Positions 2,310-61,300 are shown, numbered from the stretch's first letter. The stretch is 64,000 nt of DNA from a virus (IMGVR_UViG_3300049893_000899:1-64000), one strand, 5' to 3'. The notes: generated by a model from the letters alone, not told the origin. Translations and numbers: made by a program.

Positions 2310-4511
2310 TTATTCAAATAGTTTTTCTTCAAGAAAGAAATCCTTTCTAATCTTTTTACCCGAACCTTCCTCTATCTTTATGTAATGATGTTGGAGTCTA
2401 TTGCATATAAGTAATAAGAACGCTATTACACGGTCAAAGTTACCTGTCTTATTATACGATATCAACTCCTTCAACAAACCAGCAGAGAATATCTTGTTTA
2501 CTCCAAGAACACCAGCTTCATCTTCTTCATTAAGCCAGTCCCTCGCGTAAATCTCAAGCTCCTCCTTAATCTTGTTTGTCATATGTATGCCGTAATCCCT
2601 ATCTACATTACTCTTTTCTGTAGCCTTAAGAAATGTAGGCATTTTTGCTAACAAATGTAACGATTTTTTTTGCTTAAAGTGAAACTTCATTGAATTTTTC
2701 TCATTCTCGTACAGATTGGTAGCGTTATAATAAGCACACAATCTCCTAACATTCTCATGGTGTTCTTCTGCCCTATCAGGTCTTGCAGTGTATTCAGCAA
2801 CAATAAACTCCCTCGCGCTGCCGTGTCTAAAGTCGCCAATCTTATAGATAAAAGTAGATCCTAACGAAACTGAGTTAGGAGCCTTGTCTTGGTCATAGGG
2901 GTCTGTCGCTGCAATATACATACCATAAGGAATCTCTCCAGGTGCCGGGTGTTCCCATATCTGTACTGAACCAGTGGTATCATCTGTAGATTTCATTGGA
3001 AACCCACAAGCTCTTTTCTTGTTATGTAAATCCGGAGACCACTTAACGCCATACGTAGCATTAGGATCCGAAACTAAATCACCTAGTTGTCCATTTACTT
3101 GAGGAATATCGCAGTTTTCTACAAACTTCAACTGATCAATTAAGTCTGCAATAGGGAATATGTTACCTCCGGATATTAAGAAAGCTTCAGAAGGCACAAT
3201 AGGGTTGTTTTGTAGTTCATTATTCAACGGTTCTTTACTTGAACCTGAAGCCAACTTGTCCCTCTTGCTGTCAATATATTTCATTGCCTGTTCCTTCTTA
3301 GTGAACAGGTTATTGTCTTTGAAGTCATTCAAGCCTTTATAGTAAGGCAAGAAGTAACCTATCTTCTTTGCTGAGCCTTCAAAAGCATCAGAAAATCCTA
3401 AACAGTCAAACTGCTCAGGGTTATAGAATATCTCTTTAAGCTGTTCTGTAGCTCCAGAGATCATTTCACCACCGGTACCAAAAACCCATATAACTCCAAA
3501 TTTAGAAGAGGAGTTCATGGTATTCTCTTTCAAGGCACCCATGGCATCAATAAGGTTAGACATAAAACCTGCCTCTTCAATAAAGACTAAGTTGTTACGC
3601 AAACCGTTACCTGCTGTAGCCTTCTCTTGGAATGTTCTATGTGATATCATAGAACCACTACCCTTCACCTTACCAGTCTTCAAGTCTTTAACACTTGCCA
3701 ACATATCCTTACCAGGCATCAATGACCCTGAAGTTTCATGCTGGAAAGGAGCCATATAGTACATATCCCCCTCTTCAAAAGAACCATATAGGTTATTATA
3801 CCCATCAAGGAACTTATCAAGCAAACCCTTGCTATACTTAGCATCAAACGCTCCAACAAGAGAAGAACTTCGTAAAGGCTCCCCTGCTTTTTTAGCATCT
3901 ACATACTGTTCATATCCTTCAGCTCCATCTGTAATAAAGTTATGACATAACAAAGCCGCAGCAAAGAAAGACTTACCAGTACCCCTGGCCTCAAGGTCAA
4001 CAACATTCTTAGCTTCGTTCTTATATAAAGGAATACCACTTAGATTGTGGCTATCCCAAAGATAACTCAACGCGTCTACATACTCCTTAAAAGAACCATC
4101 TTCTTTAAACACTGTAACATCAAGGAAGTGAAACCTATAGTCTTCTTTTATAGCTTCAAAGTCTCCATTATACTCTTCGTTAAGTTCTTTTACAAGCCTA
4201 ACACAGGTCTTTTCTTTATCATCACTGAAGCCAGAAAAGCCTTTAGCTACAAGATAGATATAGGCTTTCTCCCATTCATTATCTCGTAGCCAAGGCCTTC
4301 CTAATATCTCCTGTTTAGAAAACCTATCTTTCTTAACCTTAATCTTGAAGTGGTTAACATAGAAGTAAAGAACCCCAGGGCAATAATACCCTCCAGCCCA
4401 CATACCATCAAAGACTCTTCTCTTCTCGTCCTTCCAGTATATCTTGTACTCCATACTTTTAGGATGAAAGATTGGAGCCTCGTTGAAAGTATATAAACTA
4501 GGATTTCTCAT
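2310..4511 (-). CDS. terL: Terminase large subunit
   Basis: Walker A ARGTGKS, Walker B-like VFIEEAG, motif III GTGG, RNase H-like nuclease with ATDPYD and FDRVIAF; crAss-like architecture. Confidence 0.93.
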   Translation of the reverse strand: MRNPSLYTFNEAPIFHPKSMEYKIYWKDEKRRVFDGMWAGGYYCPGVLYFYVNHFKIKVKKDRFSKQEILGRPWLRDNEWEKAYIYLVAKGFSGFSDDKEKTCVRLVKELNEEYNGDFEAIKEDYRFHFLDVTVFKEDGSFKEYVDALSYLWDSHNLSGIPLYKNEAKNVVDLEARGTGKSFFAAALLCHNFITDGAEGYEQYVDAKKAGEPLRSSSLVGAFDAKYSKGLLDKFLDGYNNLYGSFEEGDMYYMAPFQHETSGSLMPGKDMLASVKDLKTGKVKGSGSMISHRTFQEKATAGNGLRNNLVFIEEAGFMSNLIDAMGALKENTMNSSSKFGVIWVFGTGGEMISGATEQLKEIFYNPEQFDCLGFSDAFEGSAKKIGYFLPYYKGLNDFKDNNLFTKKEQAMKYIDSKRDKLASGSSKEPLNNELQNNPIVPSEAFLISGGNIFPIADLIDQLKFVENCDIPQVNGQLGDLVSDPNATYGVKWSPDLHNKKRACGFPMKSTDDTTGSVQIWEHPAPGEIPYGMYIAATDPYDQDKAPNSVSLGSTFIYKIGDFRHGSAREFIVAEYTARPDRAEEHHENVRRLCAYYNATNLYENEKNSMKFHFKQKKSLHLLAKMPTFLKATEKSNVDRDYGIHMTNKIKEELEIYARDWLNEEDEAGVLGVNKIFSAGLLKELISYNKTGNFDRVIAFLLLICNRLQHHYIKIEEGSGKKIRKDFFLEEKLFE

Positions 4512-14966: not shown

Positions 14967-15038
14967 GGTCATGTGGTCGATAATGGCAATGGCGATTACG
15001 GAAGTAATAGAATACAGGTTCGAATCCTGTCCTGACCA
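14967..15038 (+). ncRNA. tRNA-like element with the anticodon loop replaced by a GGAA tetraloop
   Basis: Acceptor GGTCATG/CCTGACC, D-arm GTCG-ATAATGGCAA-TGGC, ATTAC-GGAA-GTAAT, perfect T-arm ACAGG-TTCGAAT-CCTGT. Confidence 0.65.
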
Positions 15039-24022: not shown

Positions 24023-25027
24023 ATGTTGTTCGAGTACGAGGAGATTAAGAACATAAATCTTAAAGAGAAGATATTAAGCGAGGTGTCCCAAGAGGACATC
24101 TTCGCAAGATATCTATCTATTGAAGTCAAGGCTAAGTCTATGTTCAGAAATCCCCTTAGAGACGACAAGAACCCTACATGTGAATTTGTTAAATTCAACG
24201 GAGTATTATACCTTAGAGATTATTCTGGTTTCTTCGGAGAGATAGGTGTCAACTGCTTCGACTTAGTATCTTTTCTCTATAATATAAGCTTCAAGGAAGC
24301 TTTAATAAGAGTCAAAGAAGACTTAAACATTGGAAAGATTGGATTATTCAGTGTTGCTTCAAAGAGAAAAGAGATAGAGATCGAAGAGTCTGAACCTAAA
24401 AAAATATCAATAGTAAAGAGAAGCTTCAATAATGTAGATAAAGAGTTTTGGAATCAAGGAACCATACAAGAAGAAGACCTTATTAAGTTTAATGTCTATC
24501 CGGTTAAAGAATGCTGGATAGACGACTTAAGAGGATATTGGTACAGTGAAAAATACGCTGATAATGTAGCATATAGTTACTTCTTTGAAGATGGTTCTAC
24601 CAAAGTATATTTCCCTAATAAGGAGAAGAAATATAGATTTATTGGTAATTCAAATTATGTACAAGGATTACGTGAATTAGATTTTAGTAAAGATATAGTA
24701 TTCATTACTAAATCAATGAAAGATGTAATATCACTATACAAACTTGGATATACTGCTATCTCTGAACAATCCGAAGGAAGTATTGTCAGAGATTGGTTAA
24801 TCAAACTATTAAAAGTAGCATTTAATGAAGTTGTCTTGCTATATGATAACGATGAAGCAGGAATAGAAGGGGCTAAAAGAAACTCCAAAAAGCATTCTAT
24901 ACCATATATCTATTATGAAGAAAGTTCAAGTAAAGATACTTTCGATAATATAAGAGATTATGGTGCCGAGGCTACAAAACAAAAAATTATTAATCTATTA
25001 AAACAGAAAAGAAATGAGAACAATTAA
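24023..25027 (+). CDS. DNA primase (TOPRIM)
   Basis: NPLRDDKNPTC N-domain, ITKSMKDV, YDNDEAG, KD motif; crAss-type primase. Confidence 0.88.
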   Translation: MLFEYEEIKNINLKEKILSEVSQEDIFARYLSIEVKAKSMFRNPLRDDKNPTCEFVKFNGVLYLRDYSGFFGEIGVNCFDLVSFLYNISFKEALIRVKEDLNIGKIGLFSVASKRKEIEIEESEPKKISIVKRSFNNVDKEFWNQGTIQEEDLIKFNVYPVKECWIDDLRGYWYSEKYADNVAYSYFFEDGSTKVYFPNKEKKYRFIGNSNYVQGLRELDFSKDIVFITKSMKDVISLYKLGYTAISEQSEGSIVRDWLIKLLKVAFNEVVLLYDNDEAGIEGAKRNSKKHSIPYIYYEESSSKDTFDNIRDYGAEATKQKIINLLKQKRNENN

Positions 25028-25532
25028 AATTATCACACCATCAGGAAGAGTATCAATCGAAACTAATGCAACAACTTTCGGAGAATTAAGAGAACACCCT
25101 TCTTTCCCGGCTGTTGACTTGACTAAGAACGAAGTTACTGTAAAAGGTAGCGATGTTTCTTTGAGATTAGATAGCGCTGCTTTACCTGAAGGGAATGTGG
25201 TTATGTATATAACAGCTAAAGAACAGAAGGCAGGTATGTCAAAAGAAACTTATTACGATCAGCTTTCTACTGGAGAACTTAAAGACCTTTGTGACGAAAG
25301 AGATATTTATTACTATTCATCCAATAGAGAAAGTCTTATTGACCTTCTTCTTGAAGATGATTTAAGAGAAAATTCTTCAGTAAGTGAATCTAAAGTTGAA
25401 GGGATTAAGAATGCTTTATTAAGTATCAAGACTCAAATTGATGGAATCTTAGATTCTATTGATGATGAAGATGATGAGTTCGACATGAAAGAGCTTGAAA
25501 GACTTAGTAACGCTGTTAAGAATATCAAATAA
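25014..25532 (+). CDS. Ubiquitin-like (beta-grasp) protein with internal KAG and a SAP/HeH-like extension
   Basis: MRTIKIIT...ETNATTFGEL...VVMYITAKEQKAG (Gly74), then LSTGELKDLCDERDI...RESLIDLL; lies upstream of E2/JAB/E1. Confidence 0.65.
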   Translation: MRTIKIITPSGRVSIETNATTFGELREHPSFPAVDLTKNEVTVKGSDVSLRLDSAALPEGNVVMYITAKEQKAGMSKETYYDQLSTGELKDLCDERDIYYYSSNRESLIDLLLEDDLRENSSVSESKVEGIKNALLSIKTQIDGILDSIDDEDDEFDMKELERLSNAVKNIK

Positions 25533-25539
25533 CTAAAAC

Positions 25540-25561
25540 GCCCTGGAAACAGGGCTTTTTT
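25540..25561 (+). terminator. Terminator between the Ubl and E2-like genes
   Basis: GCCCTG-GAAA-CAGGGC followed by T6. Confidence 0.75.
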
Positions 25562-26563
25562 ATGATACATCATAACCAAAGAATACAACAGAAGAATGAG
25601 CTGAAAGAAAGACACCCTCTGTTTTATCAAGCCTTGATTGAAGAGAAGAAACAGTTTGGATATAGTTATGGGAAAATACATATTATGTATGAGAATTACT
25701 ATGTAAGAACTGATTATGGAGCTTCTTATTTCTGCCCTAAAAGCATAATAACAATTGATGTTCTTAATGGAGTAATGCATTTCACTCCAATATCTGTAAA
25801 TTCTATATATAATATGAATTATTTCTCACACGCGTCAAACAGTGGGAGTCTTTGTATAGGAATGAAGTTTGAAACACCAATTAAACAGGCTTTGAATGAA
25901 ATAAGCGATGAATATAATAGTGTTTCAGATGGAGAGGAACCAGAGCTTGATGTTGATGATTATATCTACTTCTTAAAACTATTAGATCAATATGTTACAT
26001 ATGAATCTATTGAAGGTGTTCCTTATTCTGTATTTAGGCACAACATAAAAAACGTAGCTCCTTCAAATTACAAGTTTCTAATTCCAAAAGACTATATACC
26101 AAATGAAGATAATCAAGATTCAGATATAAATCCATATGATTATATTTATGAAATTGCTATAGATTCATCTTCAAGGCATAATAGTATGAATTATGAAGGA
26201 GAGCTTGTTGGTATTTCAAAAAGAAATAATTCATTAATACTTAATTGTGGATATTTAATAGTTTTAAGTAATATTGAAAAATCTTTCTTACTTGAAAAAG
26301 GATATATAGACTGTGTTTCAGGATATCCTTATAAAATGAATAATATACATCGGTCATATTATTATGGATTTTACATTGGAGACAAAAGAATAGAGGATAT
26401 AATTGAAGAAGTAAAACCTGTAAACAGAAAAGTAAGATTAACAATTGATTGTTTCAGAAGTGAGAATAATCAGTTTGAAAACGCATTGCAAAGAAGAGTA
26501 AACAATATCACAAATGAAAAAGAAGCCAGAAATAGAGCAAAAACAAGAACAATCGAAAGATAA
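25562..26563 (+). CDS. Prokaryotic E2-like conjugating protein
   Basis: FSHASNSGSLCIG resembles the E2 H-x(5-6)-G-x-hCh catalytic motif; operon context. Confidence 0.55.
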   Translation: MIHHNQRIQQKNELKERHPLFYQALIEEKKQFGYSYGKIHIMYENYYVRTDYGASYFCPKSIITIDVLNGVMHFTPISVNSIYNMNYFSHASNSGSLCIGMKFETPIKQALNEISDEYNSVSDGEEPELDVDDYIYFLKLLDQYVTYESIEGVPYSVFRHNIKNVAPSNYKFLIPKDYIPNEDNQDSDINPYDYIYEIAIDSSSRHNSMNYEGELVGISKRNNSLILNCGYLIVLSNIEKSFLLEKGYIDCVSGYPYKMNNIHRSYYYGFYIGDKRIEDIIEEVKPVNRKVRLTIDCFRSENNQFENALQRRVNNITNEKEARNRAKTRTIER

Positions 26564-27689
26564 TGCTCCTGTAATTGAAAAGACTAAACATAAGCTTTTC
26601 ATACCAAACAGCATGATGAACCATATTAACCAGTTACATAGAGAAATTGGACCTATTGAATGGAGTGGTATATTGTTGTTTGAGCATAACGGATCTATTG
26701 AAGAGGGATTAGACCTTAAAGCTAAAGGTTTATATCCTATGAACATAGGTCATGCTACGTATACCGAATTTAGTTCAGGTAAAAAGATGCAAGATATTGA
26801 AAAGCTTCACGAAACATGGGAAGATGAAGACTGGAGATGCGCGTTGGTCCACACGCATCATTCCATGCCGGCTTTTGCTTCCACAACAGATATAAAGGAA
26901 ATAGAAGATAATGCTAATCTTCATGAGTACTATGTTTCGTTGATTGTTAACTTCAGTGGTCAGTTTGTTTGTAAGATAGGGATTTATTCTGAAGAAGTTC
27001 AGACTGTAGAACGATACAGAATACATCCAATGTCTGGAACAAAAGAGTTTGCTGGAACTTCAAAGAGAGAGTATAAGAAAGTTGAGATTGTAGACTGCGA
27101 AATAATTTACGAAGACAACAAAGTTCTTTCTAAAGTTATTAAAGAACTTAAAGACTCTAAGAAAGCTTCAGAAGTAAAGACTTTTGCTACAACAAGTAAC
27201 AAATATGGAGACTCTTTCAAATATGGTTCTAAGGATTGGAATTGGGATCAATGGAAGAATAATAATCAGCAAACAAGTCTATTTGGAGACACTACAAGCA
27301 TAACTAAGAATATAGACTACGAATATATTTATGAAAATATACTAGAGATCCTTTGTCTTGACAGCGATTTAGCAAGTGAACTTACAGAAGAATTTAATGC
27401 AAACATGATGAAGCCAAGGGCAACAGAAAAAGAGGTTGTATTAGGTATTTCAATGATAGAGAAAAGGATATCTCCAATATTGACAATGAAGTCTATAAAA
27501 GAAGTTGTTTACGATATTTGCTTGTACCATATTGACTTAAGTATTGAAGATTTTGACGACATCTTATCTTTGTTGAAGAAGAGTTCAGACGTATATAAGA
27601 TATTTGAAAAAGTTAGAGAATATCTTGAGGAAGAGTTAAGGGAAATAGAAGAAATAAAAAGACTAAATGGATTACAGGGACAGATTTAA
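26514..27689 (+). CDS. JAB/JAMM metallo-isopeptidase
   Basis: EWSGIL ... HTHHSMPAFASTTD (E...HxH-x7-S-x2-D). Confidence 0.88.
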   Translation: MKKKPEIEQKQEQSKDNAPVIEKTKHKLFIPNSMMNHINQLHREIGPIEWSGILLFEHNGSIEEGLDLKAKGLYPMNIGHATYTEFSSGKKMQDIEKLHETWEDEDWRCALVHTHHSMPAFASTTDIKEIEDNANLHEYYVSLIVNFSGQFVCKIGIYSEEVQTVERYRIHPMSGTKEFAGTSKREYKKVEIVDCEIIYEDNKVLSKVIKELKDSKKASEVKTFATTSNKYGDSFKYGSKDWNWDQWKNNNQQTSLFGDTTSITKNIDYEYIYENILEILCLDSDLASELTEEFNANMMKPRATEKEVVLGISMIEKRISPILTMKSIKEVVYDICLYHIDLSIEDFDDILSLLKKSSDVYKIFEKVREYLEEELREIEEIKRLNGLQGQI

Positions 27690-28365
27690 AGGAGCACCAT
27701 GGGCAAATACACCGTTAAGAGTAACGGTGTATGGCGCAGGTTCGTTAGGTTCTTGGTTGACATTGTTGCTATCAAGAATAGGGCATGATATTCAACTTGT
27801 AGATTATGATGTTGTTGAAGAAGTTAATTTAGCTGGTCAGTTCTTTAGAACTGTAGATGTTGGATCGACTAAGGTTTCTGCTGTTGCTAATAATGTTAGA
27901 AGCTTTTCTGGAGAGAACATAAGAACACAAACAGCAATGGTAAGAGAAGACAATGCAATTACACTTCAATATGGCAACATTGCTTTTTCTTGCTTTGACA
28001 ATCTTCAAGCAAGAAAAGATATTGCAAACATGTTCTTAGATAACAACTTACTTGATAGACAGTTCTCTTGTCTTGTAGATATTAGGATGTCAGCGGAATC
28101 ATTTGAGGTTTATTTAATTAAGAATAATGACGAATTGAAGCATTACTTGGTTACTTTACCTAACGACAACGATGTAGAAGACTTGCCTTGCACATTGAAG
28201 TCAACAAGCCATATCGCTATGCACGCAACTTGTAAAGCTGTTGAGGTTTTCAATAACTTCTTGACTAATGAATTTGGCTTAGATGGATTTGAAGAGAGAG
28301 AAGTTTTCTACAAGTATAGATATGATTCAATTTTAATGAAAGAAACATATGTTAGATCACTTTAG
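27667..28365 (+). CDS. ThiF/E1-like activating enzyme
   Basis: GAGSLGS, DYDVVEEVNLAGQ, K, CFDNLQAR, candidate catalytic Cys in LPCT. Confidence 0.9.
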   Translation: MDYRDRFKGAPWANTPLRVTVYGAGSLGSWLTLLLSRIGHDIQLVDYDVVEEVNLAGQFFRTVDVGSTKVSAVANNVRSFSGENIRTQTAMVREDNAITLQYGNIAFSCFDNLQARKDIANMFLDNNLLDRQFSCLVDIRMSAESFEVYLIKNNDELKHYLVTLPNDNDVEDLPCTLKSTSHIAMHATCKAVEVFNNFLTNEFGLDGFEEREVFYKYRYDSILMKETYVRSL

Positions 28366-28813
28366 AAGTCAACTTCAAGATCATCATGCTATTGATAGAT
28401 TGTTCAAAGTAAAACAATATGTAGACTGGAGAGTATATAGAAGATCTGCTATAAAAACTAAAAGAGCTATAATAGATTCTACAAGAGATTATTCTGAAGT
28501 AAGATTGAGTAATTCTTCTTATGGAATGAATATTGGCATATTGAAATATGGTGAAGGGATTAAATTGCTTATAGATAAAGGAGATTGTGTAATATTTGCA
28601 ATTTACTTCCAAGAATCTGATATAATAGTCTTTAATTCTCAGTTTAATAAAGGACGTGTATTTAAATATAAATACTTTATTGAGAAAGGAAAGTTCAACA
28701 ACTACGATGTATCAGAAATATCTTTCTATAAGAAAAGAGTAATCGTTGATGTAGAAGAAGAATTATTAAACTTATTAGGTAAATCAGTAGTAGATTTTGA
28801 AAGAATAGAGTAA
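28349..28813 (+). CDS. Hypothetical protein
   Basis: Coupled to the E1 gene. Confidence 0.55.
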   Translation: MLDHFRSQLQDHHAIDRLFKVKQYVDWRVYRRSAIKTKRAIIDSTRDYSEVRLSNSSYGMNIGILKYGEGIKLLIDKGDCVIFAIYFQESDIIVFNSQFNKGRVFKYKYFIEKGKFNNYDVSEISFYKKRVIVDVEEELLNLLGKSVVDFERIE

Positions 28814-28834: not shown

Positions 28835-29512
28835 ATGGTAAACATTAAAAACACACTCTTACATACAATAGAATACCCTCTTTATTTAAAGAGGGTAATG
28901 CTATCAAGTAAGAGGCAGCCAAAATATTACACTCCAACATGTAAGATTAAAAACAAAAGACTAAACGACAGAACTAGGTTCGTCTTTAGTGAGTACAAAA
29001 AGACAAAGAAACAGTACCTTGTAGATGTGAAGACAGGAGAAAGGGTTTTAAAGAATCCTAGAGCAGCCGGAACACCAAAGTATATGTCAATAAATGCACA
29101 GCATCTCTACAATCAAAATCTTCATGAATTTAGTAGAGATAAGATCGTTAGAGTGTTACATTCGTTCTTTGAAGAAGGATTGAAAAGTATTCCAAGAATA
29201 GATGTTTATCCATTAATGATTATAATGGAAATACACGACACGATATTAGAAGAAACATCAAGTTGGGACGTTGGCAACAGAGGTTTCTTTTATCAGAAGA
29301 CATTTGAAGACGTATTGAAGAAAGATAAGATTATTGATGATTCGTCAATATATATCTCTATGCCTCCAGCTCCGATATTTATACCTGTAGCTACAGCAGA
29401 AGAGAGAAAGCTTGTATTTTCAATATATCATATAACTGATGAAAGAATTGTTAACGACGTTTATAAGAGTTACGTACAAAAAGAAAATATAAATCATTAT
29501 GATAGCTTTTAA
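28835..29512 (+). CDS. RusA-like Holliday junction resolvase
   Basis: WDVGN...KTFEDVL...IIDDS resembles RusA DxDN..K...D.L...DD. Confidence 0.55.
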   Translation: MVNIKNTLLHTIEYPLYLKRVMLSSKRQPKYYTPTCKIKNKRLNDRTRFVFSEYKKTKKQYLVDVKTGERVLKNPRAAGTPKYMSINAQHLYNQNLHEFSRDKIVRVLHSFFEEGLKSIPRIDVYPLMIIMEIHDTILEETSSWDVGNRGFFYQKTFEDVLKKDKIIDDSSIYISMPPAPIFIPVATAEERKLVFSIYHITDERIVNDVYKSYVQKENINHYDSF

Positions 29513-51922: not shown

Positions 51923-52320
51923 TATAATATCGTTACAGTTATATCTTCTTCAGAACTAATAACTACAAGACATGAGTTATCATTAAGCTCAATAAAATCT
52001 TGAACACCTATCAACTCTCTTGTTGCAGTTAATTTAAAAGAAACTACAATATCATTAGAGTTTAAATTATGATTTATTGTTTTGGTAAAATATCCAGTAT
52101 AGTCTCCAGAGCCTACATCCCAAGATGTAATGTCCTCAGAGTATTTGTTTACTGTTGGAGGTGGTGTTATTTGAACAATTAGTTCAGATAACAACTTTTC
52201 TAAATCACTCAACAATTTCTCTTTTGAGTGACCTTTGTTCTCCTTGTTAGATACGTTGTCACGTATTCTAACAAGGGTAACCATTAATTCTTGTATTGTT
52301 TTAGTAGTTTCCATTTTCAA
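51922..52320 (-). CDS. Hypothetical virion protein
   Basis: TINHNLNS motif seen in Bacteroidetes phage tail proteins. Confidence 0.5.
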   Translation of the reverse strand: MKMETTKTIQELMVTLVRIRDNVSNKENKGHSKEKLLSDLEKLLSELIVQITPPPTVNKYSEDITSWDVGSGDYTGYFTKTINHNLNSNDIVVSFKLTATRELIGVQDFIELNDNSCLVVISSEEDITVTIL

Positions 52321-55300
52321 GTCCGTTTATTTTGTTCTTAAGGTGTCCATCCATAAATAAACGGACATAATTGTCATGACTAACAATTCTTCCTAGATCT
52401 TTCGGGAGCTTATCAATATCTCCAGTGAATAAATCACCTGCTAATTTAGCTAAATCTGATATAAAACCAAAACTTTGAGATACATTATTAAAACTTCTAA
52501 GTAATTCTCCTGGGTTAGCGAAGTATGTTAACTCATTGAATACTCTAAGTGCTATATACGGACTAAGGAATCGTATGTTTTCAATAAAGCCTCCTTCTTC
52601 ATCATCTCCACCTGGAGCAACCAATGAAGAAAGAAGATACAACCCATAGAATGAACCAGCAAAAATACCTGTCCATCTTAGCCTACTTGCGTTATAAGCT
52701 ATAATTTCAGATACTTTATCATCATTTTTTCCAACAGCGGCTTTAACTCCTCCCAACACTTTCTCTGCGGTACTACCTTCAGTTTTTCTATATCCTTCCA
52801 TTATCTGAATTATCTCAGCAGTAACCATCCCCATTATGGCTTCATCTCCAAAAGCGTTTCCATTAATAAGGTCTTCATCATATTCTCCTGTTTCCGGATT
52901 GTAGAGAGTATCAAAATCTTTAAGAGCATATTGCCATCCAGCAAAAGTCATCATCATCTTTCTAGGTAAGAATTTTCTTAATGACATTAAAGCTGGACCA
53001 GCTACTTTCTTATCCATCTCAGACAAGCCTCTATTTCCATAATAACCCTGAGTGTTAGATATTAAGTCAGAAATATTAAGTCCTATTTCAGAAACCATGT
53101 TATTATAAGATCTTTCATCTATCTCTCCTTTATCGTTTCTCATTATTCTACTTGTAAAGTTAGAAGTTGTAGCAAACACCTTTGGGCTTATAGATATCCT
53201 TCTTGACTTTTCGTCAAATATAATAGAATCATAAAGACTAACAGCTTCAGAGATTTCAGGAGTAGTTGTTCCATCTGCTTTAAGATATTCTCCATTCTCA
53301 GCAATACATCTTATTCCTTTAAGTTTAGCAATCGTTAACACAGTAGAAATCATGTGTTCACCAACAGCAAAAGGCATATGGCCAGCAGCGCCAAAGAAAG
53401 CTCTAACAGTTTTGTCATTCATTATATCTTGAACAAAAGCCTCATTGAAGTTTAATCTTGAATTAAAGAATACCGTTATTGCTGTAAGCTTATCTGTTCT
53501 CATAGCATCATCAGCAGAGTAATTCTTCATTGAATCAACTATGTTCTTAAAGTATTCAGTAGAAGCTTCTCCTATAAGATTAGAATCTAAAAGGTTATTA
53601 GCCTTGAATGCAATCATTGAAGACACCGTTCCAGCAGTAGCATTCACTAAACCACCTTCAATATTTCCATTAAGTTTTGCTTTTGCAGAAATAGAAGTAA
53701 TTGTTCCAAGGATCTTACTTATTGAATATCCTTTGCCAAACTGCATATCTTCTCTTCTCTTACCAAGAACATATTCATCAAATACAGATTCAGCAGCTTT
53801 AAGTCTTTGGCTGTTTCCTTTAGTGTTAAAAGCCTTATTGAAGTATTTTGTAATAACTTTCTTTCCTCCTTCTTTTATGTTTATGTTCTGTTCTCTTAAT
53901 AAAGCTTTAAGAGTTTCTCCCATAAACGCAGCTTTACTCATTTCTTCAAAGTTAATGGCGCTATGATAGTTCATCATTAATATTGATAATATATCTTTAG
54001 ATCTATCTTCAATCTTAATTCCTTTGTCTCTAAACTTAACAGGAGGTCTTTGAATAGGTTCTCCATTAAATGTAGATCTTCTAACAATAGCCTCTTCATT
54101 AGACGCTCTCTCTTCTGCATCATTAACATAATCTAAGTCTTTAGATTGTTGATTCTTGATGGACTCATTAATTCCTTCTTTGAAGCCTTCTTTTAGTTTC
54201 CCTTCAGCATATAATTCATGAGATGTCTTTCCAACAAAAGGAAGCTCGTTATTAATAAGCATATCTCCTTTTTCAAGATAACCATTAGACTTGTGTAGTA
54301 ATATTTCAAACCCATCAGCTATCTTTTTCTCTTCAGTAGTAAGAGCAGCCCATTTAGCGGACTTATATTTAGGTAAAGGAATAAGTCTCCCTTTTCCATC
54401 AGTCTTTTTGGCGTCTTTCTCATAGTTTTCTTTTTTAAATATATCTATTTGCTTACCAACATAATAAGTGCTTTTAATAGTCTTCTTTTGTTGTTCATTC
54501 AAATCCATATATTCTCTATATTGAGCCTTATCATATTCCCCAGACTCAAATCTATCGTTTATTTGTTTAGCTTTAAGGTCGTACTCTTCTAAAGCCTTTT
54601 TGTAGTTCTCCATACCGATAGCTATATATCGTTGTCTTTCAGCTTCAAGACGCATCCAGTCATACTCAGATACTAAGCATAGTCTATCTTCATCATTAAC
54701 TCTCTGAACATAGAAGAACTTCTCATTAACCTCTTCATAGTTAACCCCTAATGTTTTATTCCATCCATTCTTATTTACATAATCTCTATACATAGAAGCA
54801 AGGTTGTCTTTTCCCCTAAACTCTTCTTGGTATTTAATTCTAACGTTATCTTTAGCTTTCTCTAAGTACGCCACAAAAGGAGTAATTATAGAGTCGTTTA
54901 TCATCTTCTTATCGCAAAATGCCAACACTAAAGAAGAAATATCTCTTTCGTCTTCAGATAATCTTTTATAGATCGTATTATATCTTTCGTATAACCATTT
55001 CTCTTTATTCTTCTGGAAAGCTTGAACACCAATGTTAATTAGATTATCTCTTACAGCCTTGTCTTTAAAAGAACCTATTCCTCCTTTTATCTTTCTGAAC
55101 AAGTCTCTAGCCTGCATCATTCTAACATTGATATGACCTCTATCTTCAAAAGCCAAAGTAAAAGCAAGAACTTTCTTAGAACTCTTCTCTAAAGATGAAT
55201 TAGCTTCAGATATCTTTCTTTCAATAGAACGAAGAGCCTCGCTTAAGTCATTAAGAGTCTGTTTATGATATCTTTTTGCAAGTAAACGGTTGATTATATT

Positions 55301-58300
55301 TTCAAGAGAAGTCATATTTTCTTCGCTTGTTTCAACGTTAGTTTTTGTTCCTTCAAAGTCAATAACACCAGCATCAAGACCTATAGTTTTATTTATTAAA
55401 TCACTAAGCTCAGCATAGCTAGGATTATCTGGCAAGGTAAGAGTGTCTTCTATATTTTTAGTTGTGCTATTGTCCCCTGAAAGTCTTTTTACAATACCAA
55501 CAATCTTTCTGTACTCCTCTTTTATTGTAGCCAATTCAGAATCAATCTTAGACTGTAATGCTGTATCTGGAATTCCACCATCTAATGAAGCTTGGATGTT
55601 TTTAAATCTCTTCAAAGAAGCAAAAATATCCCCAACATGAACACTTAAGTTAGCTATTTCAACATCCTCAGTACTGCCTTTCGAAGCAAACTCAAGCTTA
55701 GGAGATATTTGTTTAGATATCAAATTAAACACACCAAGAATACTTATAGCCTTCTTAATCTGAGTAAGCTCGTCCCATCTTTCTTGTTGGTTTGCATGTT
55801 GAGCATAAAACTGCTCTAATGTCATTTTCCCTGGATTTGTTCCATCAATATCAACATCGTCAAGTATTTGTCTTAATGGGTCTCTAGTGATACTTGATAT
55901 TAAGTCTGTTATTACTATGCTGTCATTATAAACGTCCATAGCCATTTCAACAAGTTGTCTCAAAACATAGAAGTCAGAAGCTTTACCAATCTCTGATCTT
56001 ATCTGATCAATTGTTTCAACCATCTTGTTGATGTTTTGACTTCCGGAACTTGTGTCTATTCCAGACTTACTGGCAGCACTAACAGCTTCAGAAAGCATCT
56101 TGTTCAATCCATCCATAAATCCTTCAAGATCAACGTTTTCATCGTCTCTTATTGAGGCTATTAATGTATTAGTTGCTATATCTAAAGCTTCTTTCTTGTA
56201 GTTGTATTCAAAGTTACCAGCGTTATCAGACCCTTCATATCTTTCTTTAGCCTCTCTCATTGGTCCATCAGACTTAAAGTTAAATCTGTTTTCCATCACT
56301 TCATCTATATTGATGGTAGGCATATTATTGTATATGCTGCTATTAAGAACCTCGTTAGCCATTAAAGCAATAGCGTCATAGTCTAAACCAAGTTTCTTCT
56401 TGATGATATTGTAAACCTTGTTAACCCAGTTTCTTATTTTGCCAAATATAGATTCTTCAGCATTTTCAAATATCTCGGTACCTTTAAGACCTAAAGCAAC
56501 TGCAAGAACTTCTTTTCTATGTAACTCAGAACCTTCTTTTAATTCAGGGTATCTATCTGAAACTCTATCAGCTATATCTGTCTGCATAGCTTGGTCATAC
56601 GCAGCCATTGCCTCAGAAGTATAAGCTCCACCAGATATATCAATGAATACGTGTGATAACTCGTGTATAACTGTGTCTCTACTTAAATATTCCCTAGATC
56701 TAAGTTTTACAACAGGAAGTCCATCAACATAAGTAACTGATCCCCATGCTTTCATATTAGGGTCTATAATCACTTGATTAGCTCCCAACTTAGCCTCAAG
56801 AAGACCTATCTTTCTTGCTGTTCTTTTCTCGTCGTCTATCTTATCAAACTCAGACATCTTATTGTAATAGTCTTGATATTCATCTTGAACACTACCTGAT
56901 TGATTCTTAAGAATAATATTGTCAATAAATTGATCAGCAAAGAAAATAGGACTTTCTTCTATCATTTTACCGGCAAGATCTAAAGCTGTACTATAACCAA
57001 TTCTATTTAGAAACTTAATTGTTACAGGAATTACATTTGAAGAACCAGAAACTGGAGTTCTTCCAGTCATGAAATAATTCAATAGAACACCAATCTTAAT
57101 TGGCATTGGAGCATCGTCAAATGATTCTGATATTTCATTAGATAAATCACTATGAATTTCTCCTCTATTAAACTTTAGAGCTAATTTAAACTTGTCAGCA
57201 GGAGTCAGGTCTTCTAAATTATTTGAAGCCAATATAGCCGCTCTAGCTTCTTTAGACGCTTCTCCTCCAGTTTTTGATATAGCTATAAGCCTATAAACAT
57301 TCTGAACTTGTCTTCTTGTTCTTTCTTTTTCTCTATTCTTTTCGTAGTTCTTTTTTATTACTTGAATAACCTTGTTATCAGTATTAACATTTCCTTCAAT
57401 AACAGCAACAAAGTCCTCTATCATTCTGTTGTTCTTATTTGAATCAGAAAACACTTTAGAAGCAAAGAACTTATTGTAGACATAAGAAGCCATCTCCTTC
57501 TCTACGTTTATTAATCCTCCAATACTTTTTATTGCACTGTAAAACTTTTTACGATTAGCTATATTTTCTTTAGATGTGTCGTTTAAAATTGTAGAGATAT
57601 ATGTAGTTACTGTTTCGTTTGATACAATAGAAATTGAATTAAGAAGTACTGAAAGTTTTGCAAAAGAGTTTCTTAATGAACCTAAGTAAGTGTTGTTACT
57701 TAAATAGTTTTTGCTCATGTTTGCATTATTCTTGTATAGTCTATTTCTCAATTCAAAAGAACTTCTTTGAGAAAGTTTGTCGAACTTTAATTCAGTAGCT
57801 TGAGTTGATAGTTCTGAAGATAGAGAATTTAACTCATGATACATTTTTAACATACTTATAATATAAGACATATTAATAGTTGTCATTGAGCCGGAATTAA
57901 AATCTTTTATGTCTTTAGCTAAAGAGTCAGCAGAAACATCAACTTTAACATATTTAAATTTCTTCATTTTAAAGTTATATTCTGCTGCTTTACTAAAAGC
58001 AGCCAAATCATTACCAGAAAAATCAATACCTTTTGAAGTTAAATATTGAATCATTCCATTTTCTCCATACTTACTATAAGCAAATATTACAGGATGATTT
58101 AAGTATAACATTGCTCTCATTGGATGAACTCCTGCTCTTATCATCGCAAATAACATTCCAGAAGTAGTCTTATTTATATTAACATAAGAAAGGAATGGAT
58201 CCTTTGCCATATCAACGAATCCATTAAGGAAAGAAGAGATAGCGTCAACAATAGAAACAGCAGTATTTTTAACTCTTTCTCTAGCGTAAGAAAGAACTTC

Positions 58301-61300
58301 AGTTTTTGCGTTTCCTTGATCTTGGCTAACATTGAACTTTGAAGCTATCATTGAAAGTATTGGATTCTGATATCCATAACCAATCTCAACCGCAGCCATA
58401 TTCTGCTGGTTAGCAGTTGCTCCAATACCATCTTGTCCACCCATATTGTCACTTTTACTTCTAAGCTGAGTGATTGGGTTCATTATATCCAAGAACGACT
58501 TATTATTAATAGCATCTAAATCTCTTCCTTGAAGTTCTAATATGTCTTTAGTGTAATCATCTTTTAACTCTGAAGCATCAACAGGCGCCATCTTATCTAA
58601 GTAAGCTTCAGTATTAGAGGAGTTAAGCATATTATACCAATGATTGAAAAGTTCATCGTGCATCTGAGATATAACTCCAGCAGAACTTCCATCAGATTGG
58701 TTTGAGTTTCTTATTACGAATTTACCTTGTTTGTTCTTATAAACCTTTATAGATTTAAATATTAAGAACATCTTATCAATATCATAGTCAGAACCAGTCT
58801 TACCCGTTATTGATGGATATAATATTATACTATCTCCAAGATGCGGAGGAAGTATACCTACAATATCAAGGCTATCTATTGAAGATAGTTTTTGTGTAGG
58901 AATACGGTAACCTATAGCCTTATTGAAAACATCTTTATTGTTCTTCATTAAATCAGTTATCTCTTCATAAGACATCTTCTCTAATCCAGGGATGTTCTTG
59001 AAGAAACTCAAAGGAACTAAACACTCTCCAGCTTTTCCAGGAAGAGGGTGCATTAGCTTCGCGGAAGTTCTTCCATCTAAGAACATAATAGAAGACTTTT
59101 CTTCTTCACTCATAGAGTTAAGTCCAACAGGAGAAACCTGAACAGCAGAACCTCCAGGCATAGAAGGGTTAACAACCCCTTTCTGGAAAGAAGATATTAC
59201 AGATGAAATTATTTGATAACTAGAAGGCCCAACTTCATCTAAGTTGAAAGGAGTTATTTCGCTACTAGTTTTTTCTTTAATAAAATCAACAAGCTCTTTG
59301 TTGTTCTTTATTGCGTCTACCTTTAATAGTTTTCTTTTAATCCCTTCATTGAACTTCTTAACGTCTTTTATATTCCCACTATCAAAGTCCAACCCTAAGT
59401 TGTTCATAAACTCATAAGTAAGTCTTTCTGTTATTGCAGCTTCAATAGCATCAGTCTCTTCAAGGTATTTCTCTCCAGTATATTCAACTCCATTCTTGGT
59501 GTAGTAAACAAGTCCAGACTTAACGTTCTTCATAAGCTTTTTGAACTGAATCCCAATAGAACGTAAAGATTTCCCCTCAGTAATCTTGTTTGGAGTAACT
59601 TGTTGCATACCGTGGTATCTATTCTCAAGTTCAATAGCAAACAAATCTTTACCATTAATAGCCTCACTAAAGTCAATAGCTCCTTGTGATCCCATCTTAA
59701 CAGCAGAATCAAATAAAACTTCATCAATACCATTCTTTTCCATATTCTCCAATAAAGAAGCTAATTCAGTTCCTTTATGGATAGCTGGGATTATTGGAAT
59801 CATTGAATACTTAAGCATTGTAGGAACGGCAAGTAAGTGATTTAAAGATGCTGTTCCATCTTCATTAATGTTTGTTGTTCTTGAAGATATAGAATAATGG
59901 AAAGGCTTTTGAGGCCCAAACAAGTTTAATGCTTGTTGTTTTTCGTAGAAAGTAGGGACATGATTCTTGTCTTTAAGTTTCTCAACTAAAGTATTGTTAG
60001 ATTCATCCCAATCTCCTTGACTTCTTCTGAAGTCAACATATCTATCTAATGTAACAAATCCTTGCGCATCTGCTTCATTGTTTTTTAAATAAGGATTATA
60101 TAACGCCTTGGCTTCAGCTTCAGACATTAACTTAGACTCAACGGCTGTTTTAACCAAGAAGCTATACAGCCCACCAGAATCTCTTTCTATGTCATTCAAC
60201 ACTGCAATTTTAAATGTAGGCTTGTTGAATATATAAGATTCTTTTGAAGGAGAAACTAAAGCTTTATATCTTTTAACAATCTCTACAGCAGACTTAAAGA
60301 ATCCTGGATGTATAGCGTTAGCATTAAACTGTCTCATATTTAAAGCTGTGTCGATAAGAGTTACAGCTTCAAAGGCCACCATCCCACTCATATTTCTACT
60401 AGCTAAAGATCCGAAGTCAAACATCTCTTCTCGCATCTCTTTAACAGCAGAATCAATTATGTCATTCACAACCTTATCTAATATAGCAGAATTACTCTTG
60501 TTGAATACATGCTTACCGTCTTTTGAGTCAAAGATAGCATTAACCTCTTCTTGAGAACTAAAGTCTAAATCAAGTATTGAAGAATTTTTATATTTTTTGT
60601 CGTAATGTTTAATTCCAATAAACTTAGTAAAAGGCATGTTTTTAGCAGCCTCATAAGCTTTGTATGCCTCTATTTCTGCCTCAAGGAACTTAATGATCTC
60701 CGTCTTAATAAATTCAGAGGCAAAAGCTCTTATGTTGCTTCCTGGATTCTTTCTTCTATAATCAACATACTCTGTTAAAGACACAGAATAGAATCTTTCA
60801 ATGCCAGCATCAGCAGGTTGTAACATCCTCAAAGGATATATAATACTTCCTGTTGGATTTCCATTAACGTCAAACTTACCGTTAAACACAGGGCTTCTTA
60901 AAGCATTAATTTGTTCTTTGTAGTAAATTGAAACATCTTCAGTTATCGTGTTTTCTGAAGTATGCTTATTTTTTTCTTCACCTCTAGTCTTGATTATCTG
61001 AGAAAAGGAAAGTACTTTTTGAAAGAAACTCATTCCTCCTTTATAAGCAGAAGAAAATGCGTCTTCACTTATTCTTCCATATAGATTCAATATGTTTCCA
61101 CCAGGCTTTCTTTTGTTTGCCCCATTCTTAACATCAGAAATAAATCTGTTTGATGAAGCTTCTTTGTTTATTGAGTAAACATTTTTACCTTCAGCTCCAA
61201 TAGTATTTTCTTCATGTAAGCTACCAGAGATAATATCTTGTATTTGAGATATCTTCAACATAGCATCAATAGGAGATATTACATAGAAAGTATTCTTTAA

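Follow-up and report, generated by a model that had tools for sequence, protein, structure and literature searches.

In a window of 64,000 nucleotides, the whole stretch of viral DNA analysed here, we found four consecutive genes that we read, with modest confidence, as a phage-encoded ubiquitin-like activation and conjugation cassette. The source is a crAss-like phage from freshwater sediment, and the cassette lies directly after its DNA primase gene. The four co-directional ORFs occupy positions 25014-28365 of the + strand and encode a precursor of a ubiquitin-like protein (Ubl, 172 aa, 25014..25532), an E2-like protein (333 aa, 25562..26563), a JAB/JAMM metallopeptidase (391 aa, 26514..27689) and a minimal E1/ThiF-type adenylating enzyme (232 aa, 27667..28365). 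These coordinates reproduce those given in a sequence-only reading of the same DNA, whose observation was confirmed and whose interpretation was partly supported. The observations made here are of folds, motifs and synteny, of an invariant glycine, of natural forms that are short or split, and of a conserved terminator.

A conserved gene order next to the primase gene

The gene upstream of the cassette and outside it, on the + strand, encodes a DNA primase with a Toprim domain (24023..25027, PHROG 1e-43), and its 3' end overlaps the Ubl start by 14 nt. The downstream neighbour is a weak RusA-like gene (28835-29512, PHROG 5e-4), and the location within a replication module that had been proposed from the sequence is supported. 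The three enzyme genes overlap, the JAB gene sharing 50 nt with the E2-like gene and 23 nt with the E1 gene, which suggests that their expression is coupled. The order Ubl, one ORF, JAB, E1 was observed in 74/76 related viral loci and is present in Flavobacterium phage FpV4 and in the crAss-like gut phage cr126_1. The primase accompanies the cassette in relatives, and did so in every MAG match that had enough flank and a detectable primase match.

An intrinsic terminator (25540..25561, + strand; GCCCUG-GAAA-CAGGGC followed by U6) lies between the Ubl gene and the E2-like gene, abutting the ATG of the latter at 25562. Its hairpin has a 6-bp stem with 5 GC pairs and a GAAA loop, and its folding z-score is -4.96, with no shuffled sequence folding equally well (0/200). 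Terminator-like sites follow the Ubl gene in 35/63 relatives, compared with 12/205 of the other + strand gaps and 5/300 random windows (Fisher p = 8e-17 for the enrichment in the gap between the Ubl and E2-like genes); the position is kept among relatives, the sequence not. The strong terminator that had been called right after the Ubl gene is thus a real and conserved feature of the module. Because a promoter would not fit between it and the next gene, we propose that the enzymes depend entirely on read-through for their expression and would be less abundant than the modifier.

A beta-grasp putative modifier with an invariant glycine

Structure prediction makes the first 74 residues of the 172-aa protein (25014-25235) a confident beta-grasp: the AF2 model has a pLDDT of 92-97 over residues 1-70 and the topology of this fold. 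Ubiquitin-type folds make up 49/50 VIA rows for the model (Z 6.5-8.1, rmsd 2.2-2.9 A, whole targets covered), with UBX, ubiquitin, SUMO, ISG15 and MoaD among the neighbours, and chains of ubiquitin, UBX and SUMO outrank MoaD (MoaD-type Z 6.5). Foldseek gave a probability of 1.00 to both ubiquitin and NEDD8. In the row for yeast Smt3, residues 1..74 of the model are matched to residues 23..98 of Smt3, the last of which we take to be the C-terminal Gly of the mature protein. The domain ends in KEQKAG, at Gly74 (codon 25233..25235, + strand), and continues into an extension, as the sequence-only reading had described. The terminus K72-A73-G74 is K-A-G and not G-G, which counts against conjugation.

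Gly74 is the sole invariant column of the family among 50 homologues, and a Gly stands at this position in 79/80 distinct members. The tails that follow it are bimodal in length: 7 members have 1-5 residues, all others 58-217. In one relative (L056) the tail is a separate ORF, a single case of a naturally split gene. The 7 short forms and the split tail fit a precursor that is trimmed at the conserved Gly, and by its sequence G74 fits a processing-type Gly that predicted JAB cleavage would expose, and that the E1 would then adenylate. Long variable tails together with short forms fit processing as such and do not discriminate between tagging and sulfur chemistries.

The tail of the phage protein (residues 75-172) is helical and acidic, and a long helix is confidently modelled in it. 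The suggestion that cleavage would release a SAP/HeH-like fragment found little to sustain it: a match to Pfam Ish1 is weak (E 0.058) and confined to this one protein, and no recurring tail family was found across 50 relatives.

The peptidase, the adenylating enzyme and the E2-like protein

The JAMM motif E...HxH-x7-S-xx-D is complete in the third protein (E49, H113, H115, S123, D126), so that the peptidase is intact, as had been stated, and its residues are conserved in 81-82/88 homologues. Past the catalytic domain (~residues 27-160), a variable linker leads to a C-terminal domain that is helical. Pfam Prok-JAB matches this protein at E 0.01 with 16.2 bits, below the cut-off of 25, and matches 41/48 JAB homologues at E up to 0.1, the best at 1.1e-6. 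In some relatives a group I intron or a LAGLIDADG ORF lies inside the JAB gene; such elements tend to occupy conserved genes, which is only a hint that the JAB gene matters.

By sequence comparison, the E1 is of the minimal single-domain type represented by ThiF, MoeB and UBA5. It matches Pfam ThiF (PF00899) at 6.2e-16 with 58.7 bits (cut-off 28.1) and scores 58.2 bits when its own genome is searched with ThiF, and the best PDB match of the family profile is UBA5 (3.7e-14). A global hhalign comparison with E. coli ThiF/MoeB gave a probability of 97% (E 1.8e-10), the 232-aa single domain aligning end to end with the 251 aa of ThiF, and placed C175 (codon 28189-28191) opposite the crossover-loop C184 of E. 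coli ThiF. The ThiF/E1 with a candidate catalytic Cys that had been read from the sequence was supported, in that a cysteine stands at the position of the ThiF crossover-loop Cys. The enzyme keeps the N-terminal Arg finger, the GxGxxG motif and the Mg-binding Asp; R6, G23xG25xxG28, D46, K69, D111 and R116 show no or almost no variation, and both C175 and Y160 are invariant across the family. The catalytic Cys250 of UBA5 lies in the same crossover loop (PMC11601596). With Y160 invariant as well, an oxyester route as in Bub is conceivable. Two further features of the E1 family speak against conjugation, namely the replacement of the Arg of N-x-x-R-Q by Gly57 throughout the family and the missing CxxC zinc motifs. 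In PADLOC the E1 weakly matched BilD and E1-E2 models of the Cap2 type (E 3e-9 to 4e-4), the E1-E2 models reaching only its Rossmann part (residues 18-94), and the other three proteins of the cassette had no match.

The 333-aa protein, on sequence comparison, belongs to no known family: Pfam gave no E2 family and no consistent family match among 50 members, a PDB sequence search gave no match, and hhalign of its profile against 20 canonical (Asgard) UQ_con E2s gave a probability of 0.2%. Its best BFVD matches are crAss-like proteins, and a profile built from the syntenic ORFs in relatives matches it at 9.8e-9. The E2-like motif reported earlier is present as H90...GSLC98IG (H90 codon 25829-25831, C98 codon 25853-25855), and all of 50 homologues keep H90, C98 and G100; an ESxEGxPY motif occupies residues 148-155, and the equivalent of HPN reads H-A-S. 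The predicted model is mostly at pLDDT 80-98 up to residue 160, with a UBC-like N-domain (~residues 1-165, 25562-26056) in the order a1, b1-b4, a loop with H90 and C98, and a2-a4; the C-terminal half is variable and was modelled poorly. C98 falls between b4 (71-78) and a2 (106-123), with H90 8 residues upstream. The motif part of the earlier claim therefore stands, and the UBC fold is weak: the best VIA Z is only 5.5, with UEV, RWD, E2 and BubB chains making up much of the list, a value under the Z of 7-8 typical of models without a clear match. In a second VIA look at the domain nearly all of the top 36 rows were E2s, at Z 3.2-5.0, and these fold matches as a whole (Z 3.2-5.5, rmsd 3.3-5 A) lie below a safe level; Foldseek against E2s gave E 1.6 or worse. 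Predicted fold and context weakly suggest that the 333-aa protein is an E2 carrier.

Relation to known systems and a possible role in tagging

The cassette belongs to none of Bil, Bub and CBASS, and its architecture is not that of a relative of CBASS or Bil, the systems that the sequence-only reading had cited; the E1 is of the minimal single-domain type. Type I/II Bil (BilA-BilB-BilC-BilD) is a bacterial system that conjugates a Ubl in defence against phages (PMC10557695, PMC11601596). Like the phage cassette it encodes Ubl, E2, JAB and E1, in this order, in four separate genes, and it has a Ubl whose conserved Gly is followed by non-conserved residues so that a peptidase must expose it, a Cys at the expected E1 and E2 positions, and no encoded E3. 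In contrast, the large E1 of that system, BilD, combines two adenylation domains, one inactive and one active, with a mobile Cys domain, whereas the phage E1 is one 232-aa domain with its Cys in the crossover loop; BilB has a conserved His after its Cys, whereas the His of the E2-like protein stands 8 residues before it. Unlike Bil, the cassette is phage-encoded inside a replication module and its tails after the Gly reach 58-217 residues, and PADLOC models of Bil found no match except the weak one to BilD (E 4.3e-4).

Type I Bub consists of BubAB, BubCD and BubE and was formerly named 6E.1/DUF6527 (PMC11601596). It shares with the phage cassette the order of parts, Ubl then E2 and JAB then E1, and a minimal homodimer-type E1 resembling UBA5 and ThiF; its JAB cuts after a conserved Gly and frees the Ubl (PMC11601596), and the E2-like domain has BubB among its structural neighbours (9eav_D, Z 4.8, 108/128 residues aligned). 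However, Bub fuses Ubl with E2 and JAB with E1, whereas the phage has four separate ORFs; Bub uses a Ser in its E2 and a Tyr in its E1 to form oxyesters, whereas the phage proteins have an invariant Cys at both places, with Tyr160 invariant too; and Bub carries BubE (DUF6527, PF20137), which is absent from the phage genome. In type II CBASS, Cap2 is a fused E2-E1, whereas the phage E1 stands alone. The phage E1 is closest to ThiF, MoeB and UBA5, with which it shares the N-terminal Arg finger and the crossover-loop Cys, and differs from them in having no CxxC zinc motifs and a Gly for the Arg of N-x-x-R-Q. In contrast to the ThiF/MoeB pairings with ThiS/MoaD, the Ubl that goes with it carries a long tail when synthesised, the E1 is constantly accompanied by a JAB and a UBC-like protein, and the phage has no sulfur-transfer genes. 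The tail-assembly pair of lambda/T1, TAPI (Ubl) and TAPK (JAB + NlpC/P60) (PMC1779556), is another case of a phage beta-grasp protein with a C-terminal domain past a Gly-rich boundary and an adjoining JAB predicted to release it, but that pair is part of a tail module and comes without an E1 or E2, whereas the cassette includes both an E1 and an E2-like protein and is part of a replication module.

There are other readings of the cassette. The Ubl could be activated and proteins not tagged, if the JAB exposes Gly74, the E1 adenylates it, and the acyl-adenylate is turned into a thiocarboxylate (the chemistry of ThiS, MoaD, TtuB and CysO) or used in another small-molecule or nucleotide modification during replication, with the 333-aa protein as another enzyme or a persulfide carrier. 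We hold this to be unlikely while giving it some weight, given that the E1 is of the minimal ThiF/MoeB type with C175 at the position of ThiF C184, a residue that takes part in sulfur chemistry, that MoaD-type chains occur among the beta-grasp neighbours at Z 6.5, that in CysO/Mec+ and QbsE/QbsD a sulfur-carrier Ubl is paired with a JAMM peptidase, and that the E2 identity of the 333-aa protein is unproven (no consistent Pfam match, hhalign 0.2%). Operons of the Ubl-JAMM sulfur-carrier kind have been tabulated (PMC1779556). However, across the 95-kb phage genome we found no rhodanese, cysteine desulfurase or PP-loop thiolase/sulfurtransferase, whose place host enzymes could still take; ubiquitin, UBX and SUMO rank over MoaD; and the third conserved partner has an invariant Cys in a topology that resembles UBC.

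Host Ubl systems act against phages (PMC11601596, PMC10557695), and the cassette could mainly serve counter-defence against host Bil, type II CBASS or Bub, the JAB stripping host conjugates or the phage proteins acting as decoys, without tagging for the phage's own replication. The weak PADLOC matches of the E1 to Cap2-type E1-E2 models and BilD are compatible with such a role, which we nevertheless consider improbable: the Ubl, the E2-like protein and the JAB have no PADLOC matches, catalytic residues are kept in all four parts, and Bil, Bub and CBASS are sparse in bacteria. Moreover, the module is fixed beside the primase in 74/76 loci of very divergent phages, unlike typical variable anti-defence islands, and looks like a core feature of these phages. 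More improbable still is that the 172-aa protein stays uncleaved and serves as an adaptor associated with the replisome or DNA, with a beta-grasp interaction domain, an HeH-like motif and a coiled coil, and that the neighbouring enzymes act elsewhere. The overlap of its gene with the primase gene, the terminator that parts it from the enzyme genes, and a tail with a long confident helix and the weak Ish1/HeH-type match (E 0.058) would all suit an adaptor, but the one residue that never varies in the family is the Gly where the domain ends, the tail is missing in 7 members and separately encoded in one, and the genes for the Ubl, the JAB and the E1 are almost always found together.

We hypothesise instead that the cassette activates and conjugates its Ubl, and we infer each of the chemical steps, as well as the target, from the features described above. 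The 172-aa precursor would be made from a transcript shared with the primase and other replication genes, and the JAMM peptidase would cut it after Gly74 into a 74-residue beta-grasp modifier and the helical acidic tail. Gly74 would be adenylated by the minimal E1, which probably forms a homodimer as ThiF, MoeB and UBA5 do; the modifier would then be loaded onto the crossover-loop Cys175 and handed to Cys98 in the UBC-like N-domain of the 333-aa protein, whose variable C-terminal half may select as target some phage or host protein that is present at the time of replication. No E3 or target was identified for the cassette, and we found no paper in the literature that describes it. To our knowledge, work on ubiquitin-like tagging kits has so far been confined to those of cells and of bacterial defence against phages. 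If the proposed reading is true, the phage would own a Ubl, the protease that trims it, the enzyme that activates it and a probable carrier enzyme, and it is from this set that we infer the tagging itself.

Setting and spread of the cassette

The virus record from which the window is taken measures 95,355 bp and is rated complete. Between 19.5 and 32.5 kb of the window lies a replication module on the + strand, in which we found genes for an SNF2-type helicase, a DnaB-like helicase, a Sak4-like ATPase, a Toprim primase (24023-25027), a RusA-like protein (a weak match) and a 5'-3' exonuclease, all on that strand, together with the four genes of a putative ubiquitin-like (Ubl) conjugation cassette; the terminase gene is elsewhere in the window, outside this module. 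The cassette (25014-28365, +) comprises a Ubl precursor (25014-25532, 172 aa), an E2-like protein (25562-26563, 333 aa), a JAB peptidase (26514-27689, 391 aa) and an E1 (27667-28365, 232 aa). The end of the E1 gene is overlapped by a gene for a 154-aa protein (28349-28813, +), which has no match in Pfam or PHROG. Since this gene has no detectable kinship with the one that follows E1 in crAss-like or FpV4-like relatives, a fifth cassette gene is not counted here. The window also carries a 3728-aa ORF (52301-63487, -) and, in its AT-rich early region, a tRNA gene (14967-15038, +; Rfam RF00005, 37.4 bits).

The order Ubl, one ORF, JAB, E1 was near-universal when iterated profiles were applied to 80 viral loci retrieved via E1; it is identical in Flavobacterium phage FpV4 and in the gut phage cr126_1, and the cassette is present in crAss-like phages too. 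Among 185,579 species genomes, only 17 loci matched, every one of them in metagenome-assembled genomes (MAGs), and where the flanks sufficed the whole cassette was found in all and the phage primase in nearly all, the exceptions being three generic ThiF genes. Two MAG loci sit on very long contigs, one of 373,651 bp in a Puia sp. (L090, with the phage primase present) and one of 639,747 bp in a Bacilli MAG (L091); either could represent a phage genome that is integrated or plasmid-like, or result from mis-assembly. Queried with the cassette's DNA, the phage collection gave no match, and a single-protein scan of viral contigs gave no relative.

A terminator directly after the Ubl gene had been proposed from the sequence alone, and a hairpin (25540-25555) followed by a U6 run is indeed found there, its last base directly preceding the ATG of the E2-like gene, so that the enzyme genes can be reached by read-through only. 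In 35 of 63 distinct relatives the gap between the Ubl and E2-like genes likewise holds a terminator-like site, the stems being unrelated in sequence; such sites were found in 12 of 205 other gaps on the + strand and in 5 of 300 windows placed at random (Fisher p 8e-17, a value to be read with the incomplete independence of related loci in mind). Attenuation of transcription at this site may determine how much modifier is made relative to the enzymes.

Predicted modifier precursor, peptidase and activating enzyme

The 172-aa protein was modelled from a 50-sequence alignment, and its residues 1-70 (pLDDT 92-97) have their strands and helices arranged in beta-grasp order. In a structure search independent of Foldseek, run against 48,161 chains, ubiquitin-type folds made up 49 of the 50 listed rows; neighbours included UBX, DIX, ubiquitin, SUMO, NEDD8, ISG15, FAT10 and MoaD (Z 6.5-8.1, rmsd 2.2-2.9 A, whole targets covered). 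Foldseek concurred with probability 1.00 and modest E-values, and the beta-grasp assignment of the sequence-only reading is thus borne out by the model and by both searches. The Ubl profile gave nothing useful against PDB sequences.

Gly74, the predicted end of the modifier, is the sole invariant column among 50 Ubl homologues, and Gly occupies this position in 79 of 80 distinct members, mostly as K-S-G and here as K-A-G. The tail beyond it is bimodal in length across the same 80 members (1-5 residues in 7 of them, 58-217 in the rest), and the tail itself is variable. In the related locus L056 the beta-grasp, ending KSG-KF (2722-3000), and the tail domain (3533-3925) are separate ORFs with about 530 nt between them, so that the protein is naturally divided where cleavage is predicted. 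Invariant Gly, bimodal tails and split gene form, at the level of sequence, the pattern of a Ubl that would be produced as a precursor. In known systems, type II BilA has a universally conserved Gly followed by at most 9 non-conserved residues (PMC10557695), and BubAB of the Bub system is cleaved by the JAB domain of BubCD just past a conserved Gly (PMC11601596). For the SAP/HeH label given to the tail, the support found is an Ish1 match (E 0.058), present in the window's protein alone. In another relative, the crAss-type precursor L045:3365-4300, the tail holds a ribosomal protein L7/L12 C-terminal domain (Pfam PF00542, 2.9e-12).

The 391-aa protein has the full JAMM motif (E49, H113-x-H115, S123 and D126), as expected of the intact peptidase seen earlier, and these residues are retained in 81-82 of 88 homologues. 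Its own Pfam score of 16.2 bits is under the cut-off; Prok-JAB is matched by 41 of 48 relatives. The JAB gene is interrupted in several related loci: a group I intron (L042:5145-5357; Rfam RF00028, 69.8 bits) separates two fragments in one, and LAGLIDADG homing-endonuclease ORFs lie between fragments in two others (L055:5093-5941, Pfam 3.9e-10; L032:4603-5610, Pfam 1.4e-12). Among strains 93-97% identical, represented by contigs from estuary, soil and sediment metagenomes, the JAB linker (27100-27340, residues ~198-274) shows many amino-acid changes, and the catalytic domain (to residue 160) shows 4 silent and 2 amino-acid changes among the 40 of 276 strain differences listed.

The 232-aa protein exceeds the Pfam ThiF cut-off, and the best solved relatives of its family profile are UBA5 (3.7e-14), MccB, PaaA, TcdA, UBA6 and ThiF, each matched over the Rossmann half only. 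When ThiF and MoeB of E. coli, taken from an annotated genome, were aligned globally with it at profile level, the probability was 97% (E 1.8e-10, 215 columns); the alignment places the invariant R6 on the N-terminal Arg of both enzymes, D111 on the Asp of their D-N motif and the invariant C175 opposite ThiF C184, in agreement with the intact ThiF/E1 and candidate Cys first read from the sequence. All known E1s have their catalytic Cys either within the crossover loop itself or within a domain inserted into it, and C250 of UBA5 lies close to the loop's C-terminal end (PMC11601596). Unlike the canonical enzymes, the phage E1 has Gly57 in place of the Arg of N-x-x-R-Q and is without the two CxxC zinc motifs. 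Tyr160 is also invariant, which is noteworthy because the Bub E1 works through a crossover-loop Tyr. The C-terminal half alone retrieved nothing from PDB sequences, and a search of plasmids with the E1 protein gave no match.

The UBC-like candidate carrier

The E2-like protein is the weak link of the cassette. Word-based and full HMMER searches found only 2-3 close homologues, 3 being the total among 1.8 billion representative proteins. In 74 of 76 related loci a single ORF separates the Ubl gene from the JAB gene, and a profile of this ORF matches the 333-aa protein (9.8e-9) over the core that holds C-x-G and ES-x-EG-x-PY. All of 50 members of the family keep H90, C98, G100, E148 and G152, and no Pfam family recurs among them. 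A profile search with the family returned proteins exclusively from contigs of up to ~96 kb, and none of these proteins has a Pfam domain. Structure matches of the model in BFVD are crAss-like and FpV4-type proteins.

The model (pTM 0.71, pLDDT mostly 80-98 to residue 160) follows the UBC order, with an N-terminal helix, four antiparallel strands, the H90/C98 loop and three helices. UEV, RWD, E2 and BubB chains made up much of the list in a wide structure search (best Z 5.5; BubB 9eav_D, Z 4.8, 108 of 128 residues), and nearly all top 36 rows of a second search were E2s (Z 3.2-5.0), all these scores being under the method's own safe-match level. Foldseek against the PDB gave no significant match, the profile found nothing useful among PDB sequences, and ESM Atlas leads were sub-threshold (E2-CBASS 0.78, UFC1 0.77). 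The UBC fold that had been read at 25562 is weakly favoured by topology and E2-rich neighbours, and disfavoured by hhalign of the N-domain with 20 genuine UQ_con E2s from Asgard genomes (probability 0.2%). Given the weak structure scores and the lack of a profile match to E2s, we name the protein UBC-like and a probable carrier enzyme, not E2.

A proposed self-encoded conjugation cascade and its alternatives

Prokaryotic ubiquitin-like conjugation is known from the bacterial anti-phage systems CBASS, Bil and Bub. Gene order in the cassette is like that of Bil, and like that of type I Bub once fusions are allowed for. However, Bil needs a large three-part E1 whereas that of the phage is minimal; Bub fuses parts that are separate here, uses Ser and Tyr, and has BubE, for which a search of the phage genome was negative; and Cap2 of CBASS is an E2-E1 fusion, whereas the cassette E1 stands separate. 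On paper, the cassette thus resembles all three in its predicted working logic and belongs to none. Our search of the literature on crAss/Crassvirales and on phage-encoded ThiF, ubiquitin-like or JAMM proteins found no description of it.

We regard it as an evenly balanced proposition that crAss-like and FpV4-like phages, the freshwater phage of the window among them, run a complete, self-encoded thioester Ubl cascade during DNA replication, attaching the Ubl to proteins. The JAB would trim the precursor, the minimal E1 would activate the trimmed Ubl, a new sequence family of UBC-like E2 would carry it, and phage replisome or host proteins would receive it. A less likely alternative, suggested by the ThiF type of the E1, is a sulfur-carrier function or some other adenylation chemistry that involves no protein tagging, but the phage genome has no rhodanese, cysteine desulfurase or PP-loop enzyme, and the third partner appears UBC-like. 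A role in anti-defence alone agrees poorly with a position fixed beside the primase across divergent phages.

The Ubl-conjugation logic of bacterial defence is found here on the phage side, at a fixed place beside the primase. The phage group that carries it is large and counts among its members the cultured Flavobacterium phage FpV4 and gut phages of the crAss-like type. Conjugation by the cassette is directly testable: with a Lys two positions ahead of the Gly, modified lysines should keep an Ala-Gly remnant (here) or a Ser-Gly remnant (most relatives) after trypsin digestion. If the cascade reading is true, the cassette would be the first complete Ubl conjugation system encoded by a virus of bacteria. 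If conjugation takes place, the evolutionary picture of ubiquitin systems would gain a new E2-like sequence family and a minimal E1 whose Cys is in the crossover loop, and phages would be seen to employ protein tagging, whether to replicate or to take over the host.
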